The position numbers were made by a program, and so were the translations under genes. Of a stretch of 26,499 bases of DNA, positions 17,006 to 26,499 are shown one piece after another. Position 1 is the first letter of the stretch. Each line of letters starts with the position of its first letter. Under the pieces are notes generated by a model. That model had not been told where the DNA came from. It did no database searches and worked only from the letters and a program-made list of their open reading frames with translations. Location: IMG/VR virus record IMGVR_UViG_3300020044_003482, positions 1-26,499 of that record; one strand, written 5' to 3'. The stretch is from a virus (Duplodnaviria; Caudoviricetes).

Positions 17006-17482
17006 TCAGTTCTCCTTGTGCTGTGTATGGTTAATCCTTGCTTGCCAAAACATTTCAGTCATAACTTTATAGTGCTCTTCCCATGCATGTCCTCTTGGAC
17101 CAATACGGTAATGAACGCTTGTAATTCCAGATTGTACTATAAAAGCTGCACAATTTGCGCATGGATGCAATGGCGTAACGTAAATTGTATAGTCTGTTAA
17201 TGGTTCATGAGCTGATAAAATTGCGTTGGCTTCCGCATGTACAGTTCTCAGCAACTTATCTTCTCTATTTGTATATACATCGTCTACACCACGAGGAAAT
17301 CCATTATATCCAACAGAAGCAATCGTTCGATCAGGTCGTACTATAACTGCTCCTACTTTAGTCGATGGATCTTTAGACCACGATGCAACTAGATCAGCCA
17401 TAGCAAAGAATCGTTTATGCCAATGATCATCATGACTTGCCAATCTATCTGTAATCATTTGCTTGCTTTTATATCCTGTCAT
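17006..17482 (-). CDS. dCMP deaminase
   Basis: WSKDPSTKVGAVI, GYNGFPRG, HAEANA and PCANC zinc motifs. Confidence 0.92.
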   Translation of the reverse strand: MTGYKSKQMITDRLASHDDHWHKRFFAMADLVASWSKDPSTKVGAVIVRPDRTIASVGYNGFPRGVDDVYTNREDKLLRTVHAEANAILSAHEPLTDYTIYVTPLHPCANCAAFIVQSGITSVHYRIGPRGHAWEEHYKVMTEMFWQARINHTQHKEN

Positions 17483-17895
17483 TTTTCAAGCCCATTTCTT
17501 CTGATGTGTGCAAGATAGCCACTTAAAATTGTGGTATGATCTTTATCAAACTTCCTGCCAATTTGTGGGTAAGATAGATTGGTATGTTTGCGAAGAAGAT
17601 AGTAAGCCTCATGCCTAGCATGAGTTAGATTCTTCTCTCTTGATTTGCTCTTTAGAAATTCTTCAACTGGCTTATCAATCTTCATTGCTACTTTTTCAAC
17701 GATCAATCTCCAGTTTGATTTGAGATCATGAACAATCTCTTTTTCTAGATTGATAAGCAGTATCATATCTTCTGCTGTCTGTTTTGTTTTGAGTAGTTGA
17801 TTAATCTCTTTGGTCTTTGCAAACTGATAGCCAGCTTGATTTATTCTATTCCTTATTTCCTTGTAGTGGTTAACCAGATTAGTATTCTGTTCCAT
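17479..17895 (-). CDS. DnaA C-terminal (domain IV) HTH-like protein
   Basis: SREKNLTHARHEAYYLLRKHTNLSYPQIGRKFDKDHTTILSG; start uncertain (17895 or 17904). Confidence 0.8.
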   Translation of the reverse strand: MEQNTNLVNHYKEIRNRINQAGYQFAKTKEINQLLKTKQTAEDMILLINLEKEIVHDLKSNWRLIVEKVAMKIDKPVEEFLKSKSREKNLTHARHEAYYLLRKHTNLSYPQIGRKFDKDHTTILSGYLAHIRRNGLEK

Positions 17896-17930
17896 TCTTA
17901 ACATCCATATTTTCTTTATTCTTCTGACGT

Positions 17931-18293
17931 TTAGGCTTTGCCTTCCGACTTGGTAGAATTTTGGGATGATGTATTTTCCATTCCAAACTCTTTGCATAAG
18001 AACTTTTTAAGGTCGGCTTTTTCTTTCTCTGCTTCATGTGATACCTCTGCACCTATGCCAGCATATCCAGCAATATCAATCCATGAATCATTATGAAGGC
18101 CACGTGTTGTTTGCAATCTTACAATCTTTTGAATGATCTCTATGATGCAGACATCATGTGGCTCAATATCAATTCCAAGATATGCAGTTAACATTTCTGC
18201 TACTCTTGCGAATCCTTCATATGGAGATCCATAAGTATCACCACGTTGCTCGACAGTTTGAAATGCCATACGCAATAGATCTTCTTTTTTCAT
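17931..18293 (-). CDS. Conserved phage protein (DUF6378-like)
   Basis: QRGDTYGSP...KIVR...HNDSWIDIAGYA pattern. Confidence 0.7.
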   Translation of the reverse strand: MKKEDLLRMAFQTVEQRGDTYGSPYEGFARVAEMLTAYLGIDIEPHDVCIIEIIQKIVRLQTTRGLHNDSWIDIAGYAGIGAEVSHEAEKEKADLKKFLCKEFGMENTSSQNSTKSEGKA

Positions 18294-18294
18294 G

Positions 18295-18717
18295 TTATTC
18301 CCTTATAAAGCTGAGTGAATCTAGTTCTTCCATGATACGTCTTAGTGCAAATTGAACAAGTGACAATTCATCCATAAGTTCTTTGCACTTTAGTTTATCA
18401 ATCCTCATGACAATATCTTTTGAATATTTATCCATGATGATTTTGTATGACTTATCAAAGTGTTCTGCATGTAACCCATTTGGTTCTTTGTCTATAAGAT
18501 CTTTACTCTTTCTTAATCCAACAATAACAGTTGTGTGATCAACGCCTAAAGATCTTGCGATGCGTGATTTGTTGATCGACACAATCTCAAACGATAGATG
18601 AATTACAAGAGCACGAGACCACGATGTTACACGGTCTCGCTTCTTTGCGAATATATCACGGACTTCAACGCCAGTTACTTCTGATACAATCTCAGCAACA
18701 TTCTTAACTGTGATCAT
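18295..18717 (-). CDS. Second DnaA C-terminal (domain IV) HTH-like protein
   Basis: VSEVTGVEVRDIFAKKRDRVTSWSR...SRIARSLGVDHTTVIVG. Confidence 0.75.
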   Translation of the reverse strand: MITVKNVAEIVSEVTGVEVRDIFAKKRDRVTSWSRALVIHLSFEIVSINKSRIARSLGVDHTTVIVGLRKSKDLIDKEPNGLHAEHFDKSYKIIMDKYSKDIVMRIDKLKCKELMDELSLVQFALRRIMEELDSLSFIRE

Positions 18718-22179: not shown

Positions 22180-22669
22180 CAAGTTTCTTTAGTCGTTTAA
22201 GATTATTCTCTGCTGTTATAAAACGTTTGACCCATATATCGAGTCGATCTGTTATAGGTGCAGCAGCCGTCATGAACTCTGCAATTAATGGCATGTTAGG
22301 CCACTTATGTTCACGACATATCTTACGACATGCTTCCTTGAATGAGATAGATGGGACTGTTTGCAATGATTGCAGATAGATCTGATAACCCAAGCCATCA
22401 GGAACTTGCGCTCTGAACACTCGTGCTATTGCTTGCAATGATTGATCAATCTCATCTGTCGAAGCTGGATCTTGGAGCCGCCTCATAGAGAGGACGGCGG
22501 CGACAAGAGACTGCTCGACTTCATTAATGTCTGCTTCTTCTGGCAGACTATATTTCATATTGAGATAGGTAACTATGTAGTTTAGTTCGTCTGATATGAT
22601 AGTCTTTAACCAGTCTGGTACGGGAACCATATAATTAATTGGATCCCTATTCGCATATAGATCAGTCAT
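22175..22669 (-). CDS. Hypothetical protein, possibly replication accessory
   Basis: 164 aa; GGAG RBS; C-terminal YLQSL...EAC...KWPNMPLIAEF recalls proteins of phage replication modules (weak). Confidence 0.65.
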   Translation of the reverse strand: MTDLYANRDPINYMVPVPDWLKTIISDELNYIVTYLNMKYSLPEEADINEVEQSLVAAVLSMRRLQDPASTDEIDQSLQAIARVFRAQVPDGLGYQIYLQSLQTVPSISFKEACRKICREHKWPNMPLIAEFMTAAAPITDRLDIWVKRFITAENNLKRLKKLD

Positions 22670-22677
22670 ATATTCTC

Positions 22678-23094
22678 CTATGGTATTTTATCTATCCAAG
22701 TCTCTACCTTTCCTGCTGGAATCTCATTGATCTGCAACTCATAGATTGCTTCAACAAGTTTCTTCTTCATCGTGTAGACATCTGTGATCATACCTTTCAC
22801 ATCTTCCACAATGATATAACTAATGCCCCCAGTATCAGACAGTACAGCATAACGGAAATCAGCGCGATAGTTAGCAATGTGCTTACCCTTAATCATGATT
22901 TGATAAGTAGGTTGAAGTTCTAATCTACTTATCTTCCCTTGTTCTTCCATTGCTATCAGTTGCAGATACCGCTTACCTTCTGCACCAGACGCAAACCAAT
23001 GCCCATTAATATGTTCACCTTGAGCATTATATTTACCTTTGCGAGGACTTACTGCTGGCACTTTTTTGTTAACAGATCCTTTAGGACGGGCCAT
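22678..23094 (-). CDS. DUF1064-like PD-(D/E)xK endonuclease
   Basis: KYNA, FASGAEGKRY, LELQPTY, YRADFRY, IVEDVKG. Confidence 0.85.
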   Translation of the reverse strand: MARPKGSVNKKVPAVSPRKGKYNAQGEHINGHWFASGAEGKRYLQLIAMEEQGKISRLELQPTYQIMIKGKHIANYRADFRYAVLSDTGGISYIIVEDVKGMITDVYTMKKKLVEAIYELQINEIPAGKVETWIDKIP

Positions 23095-23325
23095 TTAATT
23101 TACCTTCTGAGTAACAAGTTTCAAATCAAGAGCTGCGCACCAGCACATTATGTAGAAAGATGATGGCAATCTGACACCACTTTCCCACTTGCTGACTAGC
23201 CCACTTGAAACACCAATGTCATTGTTCAATTCTTCCTGACTTAATCCCTGTCTCTCTCGCTCACGAATGAGTTCAGTTATTAGATCTTTATAGAATGATT
23301 GTTCAACTATTGTTGGCGTTCTCAT
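23095..23325 (-). CDS. XRE-family HTH regulator
   Basis: RERQGLSQEELNNDIGVSSGLVSKWESGVRLPS; start refined to MRTPT. Confidence 0.85.
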   Translation of the reverse strand: MRTPTIVEQSFYKDLITELIRERERQGLSQEELNNDIGVSSGLVSKWESGVRLPSSFYIMCWCAALDLKLVTQKVN

Positions 23326-23527
23326 TGATACTTTCTTTGGCCTTTTGATGCAGTTCTTCCAGAGCGCGAGAGACTTTGAGTGCTGTTCCGAGTCGCATAT
23401 CTTGTCCATGTTTCACCCTGTAGAATGTGCTATCTGGTACTCCTGCTAACTTGAATGCAGACTTTAGGTCTACATTATATTGGTAGGCTTTTAGTTCTAA
23501 CTGAAGAACGTATGAGTTAATTAGCAT
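23303..23527 (-). CDS. Cro-like HTH regulator
   Basis: LKSAFKLAGVPDSTFYRVKHGQDMRLGTALKV; GGAGG RBS; first gene after an operator-bearing promoter. Confidence 0.7.
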   Translation of the reverse strand: MLINSYVLQLELKAYQYNVDLKSAFKLAGVPDSTFYRVKHGQDMRLGTALKVSRALEELHQKAKESINENANNS

Positions 23528-23537
23528 AGTCACCTCC

Positions 23538-23575
23538 ACTGCGATAATGCTACTGCACTACCGCAGTGAAGGCAA
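23538..23575 (-). promoter_or_regulatory. Putative sigma70 promoter with two tandem operators
   Basis: Minus strand TTGCCT (23575-23570)-N17-TAGCAT (23552-23547); ACTGC-N6-GC sites at 23538-23553 and 23552-23567. Confidence 0.65.
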
Positions 23576-23581
23576 GAGATA

Positions 23582-23875
23582 TTATTCTGCTGCTTCTTTC
23601 TCTTCGACCACATCAAGCATTGAGCGGATCTTTTCTTCTCGGTCGAACTCTCCTTTGACAATCATATCTGTGATCTCAAGTGATGTTGCCAACTTGATTT
23701 GCGGTGGTGGAACTGGCTTGCCATCCTTCTTGGTTTTAAGAAGCGTTCCCCATCCTTCCTCATGAAACATTGTCTCATGATTGAACAGCAAATTAAATGC
23801 TGCAACATTCTCTGGTGTAAACTCAACGACTGCTTTGTCTGACCAATAGGTGCTGATGATCATATAGGTTTTCAT
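23582..23875 (-). CDS. Hypothetical protein
   Basis: 97 aa; CAGGAGAA RBS. Confidence 0.7.
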   Translation of the reverse strand: MKTYMIISTYWSDKAVVEFTPENVAAFNLLFNHETMFHEEGWGTLLKTKKDGKPVPPPQIKLATSLEITDMIVKGEFDREEKIRSMLDVVEEKEAAE

Positions 23876-23901
23876 TTTAGTTCTCCTGTTTGTTTGATTG
23901 A

Positions 23902-24240
23902 TTAACCGAAGCTGATACGAACACTTGTTCCATCAAGCAAGGCTTCGACATTGATACTCTCGACTTCTTCTGATGCAATCTCGCGGATCTTATCATCGAA
24001 ATCATAGTCGTTGATTTCTTCTTGGCAGATCTCGCGTATCCTGTCTTCTCCAAGATAACTATCCTCAACCACCTCCTTTACATAGAGCAAGATTGTTTCT
24101 TTAATATCAATCTCGTCTGTCATCACCTTACTCTTGAGTTGGTTGCGAACAACCTCGTCAATATATTTTTTGATGTAGAACATTGCTTCACCGACGATAA
24201 CATTTTCGCGGTGTAGTTTTTCTTCACGATCATTAGTCAT
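23902..24240 (-). CDS. Hypothetical acidic protein
   Basis: Asp/Glu-rich with IREICQEEI/IREIASEEV internal repeat; AAGGTG RBS before ATG 24240. Confidence 0.7.
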   Translation of the reverse strand: MTNDREEKLHRENVIVGEAMFYIKKYIDEVVRNQLKSKVMTDEIDIKETILLYVKEVVEDSYLGEDRIREICQEEINDYDFDDKIREIASEEVESINVEALLDGTSVRISFG

Positions 24241-24454
24241 TGTCTTCACCTTTCATGAGTTTGATAATCTGTTCCAGTGTGCTGGTATCATAATTCTCGA
24301 AGCGTTCTTCCATATCTTCTCGGACCCATTGATAGAAGTCTTTGTCACTCATGGACGTAAGCACTTCGAACTCTTTCTTTGTCAGCCAATCAATACATTC
24401 TTGGCGAATGTTATGTTCAAGATCCTGACCTTCTGATCGCATAACGATAATCAT
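24233..24454 (-). CDS. Hypothetical protein
   Basis: 73 aa; GAGGAGG RBS. Confidence 0.7.
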   Translation of the reverse strand: MIIVMRSEGQDLEHNIRQECIDWLTKKEFEVLTSMSDKDFYQWVREDMEERFENYDTSTLEQIIKLMKGEDND

Positions 24455-24464
24455 TATTGCCTCC

Positions 24465-24548
24465 TCATGGTAAGAGTAGATAGTAATCTATGGCAACGCT
24501 GATGAGATATAACCACATCAGCATACTCAACATCTCAAATATATTCAT
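24465..24548 (-). CDS. Putative 27-aa hydrophobic peptide
   Basis: MNIFEMLSMLMWLYLISVAIDYYLLLP; GGAG upstream; fills the gap. Confidence 0.35.
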   Translation of the reverse strand: MNIFEMLSMLMWLYLISVAIDYYLLLP

Positions 24549-24660
24549 AGCCATTCTCCATATAATCCAATGCTTCTTCGAGCATGAAGTTCATCTCACG
24601 TTCAGTAATAATGCCACTTACATAAAGCATGTAAGCATGATTAAACATATCAGATTTCAT
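24535..24660 (-). CDS. Hypothetical 41-aa protein (not in the ORF track)
   Basis: MKSDMFNHAYMLYVSGIITEREMNFMLEEALDYMENGYEYI; CAGGAGAA RBS. Confidence 0.55.
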   Translation of the reverse strand: MKSDMFNHAYMLYVSGIITEREMNFMLEEALDYMENGYEYI

Positions 24661-24816
24661 ATCAATTCTCCTGTTTGGTTTTGTTTACTGCTGCCAGCTT
24701 TTAGTAGTCAGCTTTTTTGAAGCGCAGTTGTATGTGACTCACCAAAAGCCCCTTCCTTTCGCGGCTTAGAAGAGCGCCTGTGTTGACCAGTCTCTCTCTA
24801 CACGAGCGATAGCGGA

Positions 24817-24855
24817 ACAAGAAAAAAGGTGAGCGCCCTGTCGAGAGCGCCCACC
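24817..24855 (-). terminator. Rho-independent terminator after the first leftward gene
   Basis: Minus strand GGTGGGCGCTCT-CGAC-AGGGCGCTCACC then TTTTTTCTTGTT. Confidence 0.85.
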
Positions 24856-24863
24856 TCGTTAAG

Positions 24864-25403
24864 TCAGAGTGTGCCGTTCGAGCGGCGTGGTTCAAACGAG
24901 ACACCTAACATATTCGCTAACTCGGAAGCTGCTGTAGATGTCTGTTTGGTCGTGGTCGGAGTCTTGAAGTTAACTGGTGCATTGTAAGTGAAGGGTTTGT
25001 CAGAGAGCAGATCATGGCGCTCAACCAACTTCTTCAGCGCCAACTCTGCTGCGTGTTTGCAATCTTGGATGCGAGTCAGTTTGTCTTTGACCCGTGTAAA
25101 GTTCCCTTCCCAGATCTCGACTCCGTTCTGTGCCTGTTCAATCAGGTTCTTGGCTTCGACCTTCAGTGCATCTTCTTGGTCGTCGAAGTAGCGGATCTGC
25201 TTGGTCAGGTTGTAGCACATGCCATTCAAGACCGAGATCTGTGTAAACTCAAGACCGTTGTAGTTCTGGATAACTCCCTGCTTATCTGTGTATTGGACTG
25301 GATAAGAGAAGAAGCTATTGAGGCTGATGATTACGTTGTCGAGCAGTTGTTCAGCGGTGTTCGTGGTTGCTACTGCGTTCTTCTGTGCTGATTTCTTAGT
25401 CAT
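24864..25403 (-). CDS. Hypothetical protein, first gene of the leftward arm (179 aa)
   Basis: CAGGAGAGAG RBS before ATG 25403 (MTKKSAQKN...); terminator directly downstream. Confidence 0.75.
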   Translation of the reverse strand: MTKKSAQKNAVATTNTAEQLLDNVIISLNSFFSYPVQYTDKQGVIQNYNGLEFTQISVLNGMCYNLTKQIRYFDDQEDALKVEAKNLIEQAQNGVEIWEGNFTRVKDKLTRIQDCKHAAELALKKLVERHDLLSDKPFTYNAPVNFKTPTTTKQTSTAASELANMLGVSFEPRRSNGTL

Positions 25404-25412
25404 GATACTCTC
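25380..25412 (-). repeat. Left copy of a 33-nt inverted repeat (partner 26443-26475)
   Basis: GAGAGTATCATGACTAAGAAATCAGCACAGAAG; 31/33 identical to the right copy. Confidence 0.9.
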
Positions 25413-25465
25413 TCCTGTGTTAGCGAACCAGATCATCTAGTTCTTCTTACTAACACCTTCCCCAT

Positions 25466-25716
25466 TAAAACGGGGACCCACCAACCATCAAGGATCCAAG
25501 ATAAAGTTTGCGATAGCTTGAAGAGTCCCTATGTAGGCGAGATGAGCTGTCGGATACTCGCAATACTCCCCATGCTCGGTCGGCCAAGAAAGAGGCCGCC
25601 CTGTGCGTGGGTCCGTGTTGCTCCGTGTCCGCCATCTCACTACGCCAGTAAACTTTTTCTTGGCCCGTAGGCTCGCTTCGCTCGTCCTTGACGGTCGGTC
25701 CCCCCCGTTTTATTAT
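25466..25716 (+). promoter_or_regulatory. Long imperfect fold-back carrying a sigma70 promoter in one arm (Frpo/sso-like)
   Basis: Eight nested complementary segments; TTGACG (25688-25693)-N17-TATTAT (25711-25716) lies in the 3' arm. The structure is observed; the function is inferred. Confidence 0.65.
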
Positions 25717-25940
25717 TGAAATTAGTGGAGGAAAATCATAGGGGTCACGTCAGTCACAGTCGAGCGCCAGCGAGACCGAGCGTAACAGCGAGTAGTAACT
25801 CTTTAATCAATAACTCTAATAGGTGGTCGACGGATCGGTAAACCCGTTGTTCTTCACTGGTCTGATAGATTTATGTAGTGAAACAGGGCTTGTCGTTCAT
25901 GCTTCTGTGGACCATACCCCGTTTTAAGTAGATCTACGTA

Positions 25941-25969
25941 TTGACACCCTTTTTTGTGGTGAGTACTCT
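25941..25969 (+). promoter_or_regulatory. Putative sigma70 promoter for terS
   Basis: TTGACA-N17-TACTCT, 33 nt before the ATG; AAGGA RBS. Confidence 0.6.
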
Positions 25970-26002
25970 ATATACAGATGAGAGAAAGAAAAGGACTTAA
26001 AC

Positions 26003-26395
26003 ATGGGCCGTGTAGTGGCTAACGTGTCTACACCCAGTGGTGATCTGACGCTAAAGCAGGATGCCTTCGTCGATGCGTATGTAGCAAATGGTGGGCAAGG
26101 AACACAGGCTGCAAAGGATGCGGGTTACAGTGAGTCTGGATGCCATGTTGAAGCGAACAGGTTGCTGAAGAATCCCCTGATTATTCAAGAGGTTCATCGC
26201 AGAACGGTCATGGCTATAGGAGCGGCGTTACCAAGTGCTCTGAAGACGATAACCAGATTGTCGAGCGGTGCTAAGAGCGAGTATGTGCAGCTAGAAGCAT
26301 CCCGTGATCTGCTTGATCGTGCTGGTATGAGAGCGGCTCAGCGGATAGATCACCGTGTTGATGGTGAGTTACGTGTGAGTATAGACCTGTCGTGA
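26003..26395 (+). CDS. terS: Terminase small subunit
   Basis: LTLKQDAFVDAYV...GTQAAKDAGYS...ANRLLKNP HTH; QLEASRDLLDRAG. Confidence 0.85.
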   Translation: MGRVVANVSTPSGDLTLKQDAFVDAYVANGGQGTQAAKDAGYSESGCHVEANRLLKNPLIIQEVHRRTVMAIGAALPSALKTITRLSSGAKSEYVQLEASRDLLDRAGMRAAQRIDHRVDGELRVSIDLS

Positions 26396-26442
26396 GTAGG
26401 CCCGTGGTGTGTGTATGGTCGACAAGGGGGGGTTAAAACTAG

Positions 26443-26475
26443 GAGAGTAACATGACTAAGAAATCAGCACTGAAG
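26443..26475 (+). repeat. Right copy of the 33-nt inverted repeat
   Basis: GAGAGTAACATGACTAAGAAATCAGCACTGAAG. Confidence 0.9.
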
Positions 26476-26499
26476 GCAACTGCACCAGTTGCAACCACC
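26452..26499 (+). CDS. Partial gene MTKKSALKATAPVATT..., N-terminus paralogous to the gene at 24864-25403
   Basis: AGGAGAG RBS; open to the window edge. Confidence 0.55.
   Translation, partial: MTKKSALKATAPVATT

Follow-up and report, generated by a model that had tools for sequence, protein, structure and literature searches.

Promoters that act on single-stranded DNA (ssDNA) have been described in the leading regions of plasmids, where the accessible parts of the sources distinguish class 1 (Frpo, ssi1-3), class 2 (klcA/ardA, ssp2) and class 3 (M.EcoGIX) elements (PMC12672017, PMC11541004, bioRxiv 10.64898/2026.01.09.698686). The klcA/ardA hairpins were mapped as class 2 ssDNA promoters in pESBL by 5' RACE (accessible text of PMC12672017). 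In phage N4, early hairpins of 5 bp are read by a giant virion RNA polymerase (accessible text of PMC13434306 and PMC13037366). GNA mini-hairpins occur at ssDNA origins and promoters, and those of the GCGNAGC type, whose DNA form is much stabler than the RNA form, are present at the initiation sites of G4, ssiA and N4 (accessible text of PMC13037366). A literature search, with most subscription papers outside its range, returned no description of an element such as the one reported here in a tailed dsDNA phage, HTVC010P-type phages and Hodr included.

The window, which is the whole stretch of 26,499 nucleotides analysed, is a single 26.5-kb podophage contig lacking about 8 kb of the genome. 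Its + strand carries T7-like tail and internal virion genes. The leftward arm encodes a RecE-like exonuclease, ERF, SSB, ArdC and two proteins with a DnaA C-terminal helix-turn-helix domain (17479-17997 and 18295-18717); next come ORF1 (24864..25403, - strand, 179 aa), an imperfect rod hairpin of 247 nt (25466..25712, no strand assigned to the feature itself) and the gene of the terminase small subunit (terS, 26003..26395, + strand). Among cultured phages, Pelagibacter phage EXVC031P Hodr (OQ414635) is the closest, with a tail protein 45.7% identical to that of the window. Hodr has the same ORF1-rod-terS layout, with a rod z of -13 to -14. The OQ414635 record (locus L081) bears the title EXVC031P Hodr and locus tags of EXVC032P Baldr.

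Folding and alignment to relatives showed that the rod consists of nested complementary arms at the positions given in the initial annotation, which had been made from the letters alone. The outermost stem (25466-25475/25703-25712) is a perfect 10-bp inverted repeat and is paired at 10 of 10 positions. It is followed by stems of 13 pairs in 15 with two A-C mismatches (25480-25494/25685-25699) and 13 pairs in 14 with one T-T mismatch (25496-25509/25650-25663). The stem at 25533-25544/25633-25643 pairs only with a small internal loop. The inner core (25551..25631) contains three repeated 7-bp units (25551-25557/25625-25631, 25560-25566/25615-25621 and 25569-25575/25605-25611), each with one T-G pair, and the CGGCC/GGCCG stem that closes the loop is fully paired (5/5). 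The units are separated by TC or TCC loops, which read GGA or GA on the template strand in the relatives, and one compensatory pair change was found in the core (25562/25619). A GCGAAGC DNA mini-hairpin (25675..25681) lies on the - strand of the window and on the + (template) strand of the relatives; the equivalent side branch of contigs L002 and L093 is a C-GAA-G triloop hairpin. The word of the 10-bp terminal repeat has a third copy at 25917-25926 in the window, which is missing from contigs L001 and L003.

The stability expected by the initial annotation was confirmed on both strands: the fold of 25456-25726 is better than all 200 of 200 shuffles, with z of -5.17 (+) and -5.91 (-) for DNA parameters and -6.72 (+) and -5.62 (-) for RNA parameters. 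When 524 windows of 300 nt were scanned with Watson-Crick pairs only, the one that contains the rod shared first place once GC content was corrected for (z -3.1, -97 kcal/mol); the other top window, 22351-22650, had a z of just -2.1 against shuffles. A sliding scan of 250 nt failed to frame the rod. None of the Rfam 15 covariance models matches the rod, the three matches elsewhere being chance ones (E 3-5). The rod is a single copy in 23000-26499, the window scan gave no second rod, and the genomic position is the same across loci; a MITE or mobile palindrome was rejected on these grounds. The element therefore gave no match to a known structured RNA or to a MITE, the two matches that the initial annotation had set against its own proposal.

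The rod is one copy of a family-wide element located between ORF1 and terS in Hodr-related phages. The discovery set comprised 80 terS loci and three others, with a leftward first ORF within 1.5 kb in 68 and 35 loci after removal of redundancy; a further 162 loci were held out, of which 124 could be used and 56 were non-redundant. ORF1 was assigned by a simple rule that is wrong in a few loci, and the loci are related to one another, so the counts below are not fully independent. The 300 nt at the ORF1 head fold with a z of -5 or lower in 23 of the 35 discovery loci (12 shuffles each). The median number of long-range pairs there is 97, compared with 29.5 in 32 late coding windows and 37.5 in 30 early ones, and at least 60 such pairs are present in 44 of the 56 held-out loci. 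The rod position is kept across loci whose sequences cannot be aligned. The sequence of the arms is copied from the region upstream of ORF1, and the region of the ribosome-binding site (RBS) and ATG of ORF1 is paired by the rod in 21 of 25 discovery and 30 of 46 held-out rods. Covariation in related phages, which the initial annotation had called for, was seen as pair-keeping double changes in 13/59, 10/62 and 16/73 pairs of three clades, these being small sets of related sequences (11, 4 and 5, respectively). In HTVC203P and MEP301 (tail identity about 31%), no comparable rod was seen in the regions folded, as judged by eye without shuffles.

Several contigs of the family show further peculiarities. 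Very long imperfect inverted repeats (~70% identity) are located ~1.1 kb upstream of terS in L030, L032, L058, L061, L066 and L071 and extend several hundred bases into ORF1. Contigs L098-L102 lie within bins labelled archaeon, Rhodobiaceae and Gammaproteobacteria; they are probably co-binned phage rather than host evidence.

ORF1 proteins form one family that heads the early arm in 46 of the 65 loci compared, Hodr and the window included. Protein comparison placed ORF1 in no known family, with no assignment from Pfam, PHROG, PDB sequences or Atlas. Its predicted structure (pLDDT 76) comprises a helix, a beta-hairpin and a long helical hairpin, and fold searches returned generic helical hairpins and three uncharacterised phage proteins, nothing specific. 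An intrinsic-terminator-like hairpin with a T run (24826..24857, - strand) closes the ORF1 unit; such a hairpin follows ORF1 in the window, in L001 and in 14 of 30 loci. Beyond it lies an ordinary sigma-70-like site, TTGATA-17-AATCAT (24637..24665, - strand; TTGACA-17-AATAAT in Hodr), which by its sequence could drive the rest of the early arm. Thus, the unit that the rod would control is ORF1 and not ardC and ssb, which are 5-6 kb away from the rod; a transcript from the folded + strand would meet the terminator and would not simply continue into the ardC/ssb arm, as had been suggested earlier. A rightward role of the rod hexamers toward terS, also suggested at first, is not needed, since terS has its own promoter-like site ~35-60 nt upstream (TTGACA-17-TACTCT, 25941..25969, + strand). 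Near-consensus promoter sites precede terS in the relatives. In most of 84 loci, terS is directly followed by a motif of a G run and an A run (26426..26439, + strand, in the window). It is highly conserved (G6-8 plus T/CAAAAAC), with an A/T-rich block ~40 nt on, and is a candidate packaging signal of the family. Contig ends are mildly denser near terS (10/40 starts and 10/31 ends within 500 nt), in numbers too few to place a terminus.

The folding strand was analysed by a strand-neutral method, in which Watson-Crick pairs predicted on both strands were kept and isolated 1x1 mismatches were counted on the ORF1 template strand; it superseded an earlier, too permissive count (367 vs. 306). On the template strand, G-T exceeds A-C (42 vs. 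12 in discovery, 64 vs. 5 in held-out loci), G-G exceeds C-C (11 vs. 0 and 12 vs. 3) and G-A exceeds C-T (33 vs. 25 and 40 vs. 25). Counted per locus, the bias is 17 vs. 6 with 12 ties in the discovery set and 33 vs. 5 with 18 ties in the held-out set, and it is absent from the coding-window controls (3 vs. 4; 4 vs. 1). The mild preference for G-A over C-T is closer to RNA than to DNA pairing rules. C(GNA)G triloops number 31 on the template strand of the discovery rods, compared with 11.2 +/- 3.5 in shuffles and 14 on the coding strand, and 43 in the held-out rods, compared with 12.5 +/- 2.9 and 12; without the closing-pair rule, the excess is modest (17 vs. 9). GNRA and UUCG loops show no enrichment on the template strand in either set, and an excess of UNCG loops on the coding strand in the discovery set (8 vs. 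2.4 in shuffles) was not replicated in the held-out set (1 vs. 2.6). Cytosine deamination on one strand could add G-T pairs, but neither the G-G pairs nor the triloop excess. Given the mismatch bias and the DNA-type triloops, the best reading of these sequence statistics is that the rod very probably folds as ssDNA on the template strand of ORF1. The initial annotation had built its proposal on a fold of the + strand as ssDNA but had left the folding strand open; the family data decide for the + strand, and for DNA over RNA. The argument of that annotation from the three inner pairs fared less well: the T-G pairs are present on the + strand of the window, but in the orientation of the relatives these positions read A-C on that strand, and the argument from the window is a mirror image because this copy is inverted.

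Structural comparisons of the related contigs revealed this inversion. The 247-nt rod of L001 and L003 is 92.7% identical to that of the window and reversed, with colinear flanks, and the breakpoints fall inside the 10-bp terminal repeat, one in the left copy (25466..25475) and the other in the right copy (25703..25712). The rods of L084, with the same outer arms and a different core, and of L002 and L093, which share the core but not the outer arms, likewise have the orientation opposite to that of the window. The window is thereby inverted against all five relatives. Outer arms and inner core are swapped as modules among L001 (2498-2744), L084, L002 and L093, with the fold kept. In contigs from four public runs aligned to the window, the relatives' orientation occurs among the pieces listed and the window form in none of these. 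Homologous rod pairs have the same orientation in 108 of 113 discovery cases, the five inverted ones all including the window, and in 199 of 199 held-out cases. The last 59 nt of the window (26441..26499, + strand) are an inverted tail, 100% identical to L002 586-644 at the ORF1 start and joined via 7 nt of microhomology just past the G-run motif. This tail is probably a chimeric contig end and gives reason to doubt the rod orientation in the window. On the sequences compared, the flip would have arisen in nature, as a rare inversion, or in the library, as a chimera; a flip by the assembler alone is unlikely because the repeat is only 10 bp, with chimeric reads still a possible source. A flip-flop hairpin telomere or invertible switch was rejected, as no rod other than that of the window is flipped and the perfect repeat measures just 10-11 bp.

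Promoter signals are arranged in the rod as the initial annotation described them. TTGACG (25688-25693) is paired in the 3' arm and is followed after 17 nt by TATTAT (25711-25716), unpaired at the base of the rod; together they form the predicted non-template arm of a fold-back promoter (25688..25716, + strand). The partner of the -35 hexamer (25486..25491, - strand) reads TTGATG (TTGACG in L001, L003 and L084) and the -10 behind it is poor. Since both arms carry a -35 and the -10 sits in the flank, TTGACG still precedes a -10 after the flip. TTGACG-17-TATTAT is the best of nine sigma-70 matches in 23000-26499 (10/12), where shuffles give 5.6 +/- 2.3 matches. In L001, the corresponding TTGACG-18-TATTCT lies on the + fold with TTGACG fully paired, TATTCT in a bubble and the stem re-closing beyond, and transcription from this fold would start ~60 nt before the ORF1 ATG. 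By analogy with the L001 fold, a pyrimidine tract of the window (25456..25465, + strand) is predicted to re-pair with 25724-25733 past the -10 bubble and to mark the start-site region of the leftward transcript. L002 and L093 keep TTGAC at the same place though the stem sequence differs, and in Hodr, L026, L057 and L077 the -10 of the 3' arm is good and that of the 5' arm is worse. The -35 and -10 are rebuilt in the 3' arm, with the -10 imperfectly paired, in the window, L001, L026, L057, L077 and Hodr.

Family-wide, the signals are weaker. Paired -35-like hexamers point outward in 30 cases and inward in 15 (p 0.036); a cruder count on the 3' side of the held-out rods has no direction (38 vs. 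40), and the -10 of the 3' arm is not better than that of the 5' arm (16 vs. 13). A full sigma-70 promoter in Frpo geometry was found at p <= 0.1 in 6 of 24 rods (Fisher p 0.09), which is a weak test: the matrix only approximates that of E. coli, and the score null has little power because only two of the four F leading-region hairpins pass. The promoter geometry is clear in the clade of the window and not significant across the family.

The rod shares several properties with the Frpo/ssp promoters. It is a long imperfect stem-loop of similar size immediately upstream of a gene, it very probably folds on the template strand of that gene (in the family data, the window's copy being flipped), and it has a -35-like hexamer paired in the 3' arm. 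In contrast, it adjoins terS in a tailed phage and is not behind an oriT or in a leading region delivered by conjugation; no relaxase was found among the window proteins scanned, which are a tailed-phage gene set. It is a single copy that heads one unannotated gene, often pairing across its RBS and start codon, and its promoter role is predicted. Alignment to the plasmid sets, which the initial annotation had proposed, gave no overall homology and short matches in three relatives only. L079 agrees with the F klcA hairpin, a plasmid class 2 element, at 19 of 20 nt just upstream of its -35-like hexamer, and a second match, to the F ssb hairpin, surrounds the -35; the two score 35 and 29, respectively, where the null reaches 28 at most. 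The matches of L079, L031 and L067 to four F hairpins cover 17-23 nt. Searches with blastn found no match between the window rod and plasmid ssDNA promoters or between the F klcA hairpin and phages, and gave only the Hodr terS and one chance plasmid match for the window against phages and plasmids. The klcA-like motif GCGAAGCG..CCYTTG alone is not specific: a scan of viral contigs gave 40 matches, mostly in unrelated viruses without rods, and one of the 40 lies beside a family terS. In a different virus group (L107, L110, L113, L114, L116, L117, L136 and L143), GCGAAGCG directly precedes a TTGACA-17-TATGC site, which is followed by a small rightward ORF, and a clear rod is lacking. The rod thus most likely works like a plasmid ssDNA promoter and is not a member of that group by homology or context. 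N4 offers a parallel as a tailed dsDNA phage whose earliest transcription uses GNA-triloop ssDNA hairpins (accessible text of PMC13037366). However, the rod is about 100 bp long compared with the 5-bp hairpins of N4, and no RNA polymerase gene was found among the window proteins (about 8 kb of the genome missing). A Xanthomonas phage preprint was rejected as a parallel, its hairpins being protein.

From the observed structure, position, strand preference, DNA-type loops and fixed orientation of the rod, we infer its use by RNA polymerase, its dependence on ssDNA and a source of that ssDNA. The reading that we prefer, at a probability of roughly 0.5, is that the rod acts as an ssDNA promoter of ORF1 for the host RNA polymerase and that the transcript may double as a primer. 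The rod would form on the single-stranded template strand of ORF1, with the 3' arm as a diverged inverted copy of the ORF1 promoter and leader, often also of the RBS and first codons. Folding would rebuild a duplex -35, an open -10 and a downstream duplex, on which the host polymerase would transcribe ORF1 alone. The ssDNA could come from resection of the 5' strand at the genome end that lies close to the packaging-like motif downstream of terS, or from strand displacement in replication, which would favour a priming role. If packaging started at the G run and ran rightward, terS, the rod and ORF1 would lie at the end that is packaged last and enters first. The 3' end there would belong to the + strand, and loss of the 5' strand by resection would expose precisely the strand that folds. 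We know of no route that makes the terS-side end of a tailed-phage genome single-stranded. It is conceivable, if on balance doubtful, that these phages, a widespread aquatic family with T7-like tails and Hodr among them, deliberately expose the terS end as ssDNA on entry and that the fold-back promoter fires ORF1 before the duplex is restored, in the manner of plasmid zygotic induction.

A rather unlikely alternative, though the strongest of those considered, is that the rod serves chiefly as a single-strand initiation signal (lagging-strand origin) on the displaced + strand, with the primer made by host primase, primosome or RNA polymerase and ORF1 served by ordinary promoters. The strand, loop and orientation evidence fits it equally, the promoter statistics are weak, and no primase, helicase or polymerase was found among the 31 window proteins scanned. 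The ssoA of rolling-circle plasmids and the minus origin of M13 are strand-specific, orientation-fixed imperfect palindromes. So are the G4 origin and RSF1010 ssiA, in which, as in related priming sites, GNA mini-hairpins are found (accessible text of PMC13037366), and rolling-circle-like replication with host enzymes has been proposed for Skadi, a sister HTVC010P-type phage (accessible text of PMC10504331). However, the rod, unlike these origins, is tightly coupled to a gene start, and the frequent pairing of the ORF1 RBS and ATG and the single-gene terminated unit are a better fit to gene control. The early module of HTVC203P is similar, yet no long rod was seen at the divergence region of this phage (folded without shuffles), and no rolling-circle Rep or nicking initiator or nick site was found in the 26.5-kb window, from which about 8 kb of the genome is missing.

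It is improbable that the rod is a by-product, either an inverted second copy of the ORF1 promoter region that template-switch correction keeps alike or a nuclease-blocking fold at the genome end, with its G-T pairs derived from one-strand deamination. The arms do copy the ORF1 upstream region, flips occur, as the window shows, and template switching in quasi-palindromes can mimic compensatory change. However, deamination leaves the G-G excess over C-C (23 vs. 3) and the triloop excess unexplained, the free flipping expected of a neutral palindrome is not seen (no inversion in 199 held-out pairs), and the position is kept where the sequence is unalignable. Least probable of all is a structured RNA, be it an ORF1 mRNA leader that hides the RBS or an antisense or packaging-related RNA that runs rightward: RNA and DNA parameters give equally good folding z, RBS sequestration is common, a leftward TCGACT-17-TATGAT site lies at 25763-25735, and the G-U, G-G and weak G-A preferences fit RNA energetics, but the favoured strand is antisense to ORF1 and therefore not its mRNA leader, a + RNA would need its start within ORF1, the loops in excess are C(GNA)G triloops and not GNRA or UUCG loops, an Rfam match is absent, and external leftward promoters are not enriched family-wide (Fisher p 0.46).

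The reading of the rod as an ssDNA promoter of ORF1 is directly testable, because Hodr, a member of the family, is in culture. The paired-mismatch and triloop tests provide a simple way to separate ssDNA elements from RNAs in other genomes. The ssDNA promoters known so far belong to conjugative plasmids and ssDNA replicons, which pass through an evident single-stranded stage. The element stands at the head of the early arm in considerably more than a hundred contigs of tailed phages. Its presence there implies that one end of these genomes has a functional single-stranded stage, which is not described in the literature searched, and points to ORF1 as a first-expressed, unannotated protein that may be of interest with regard to host defences.
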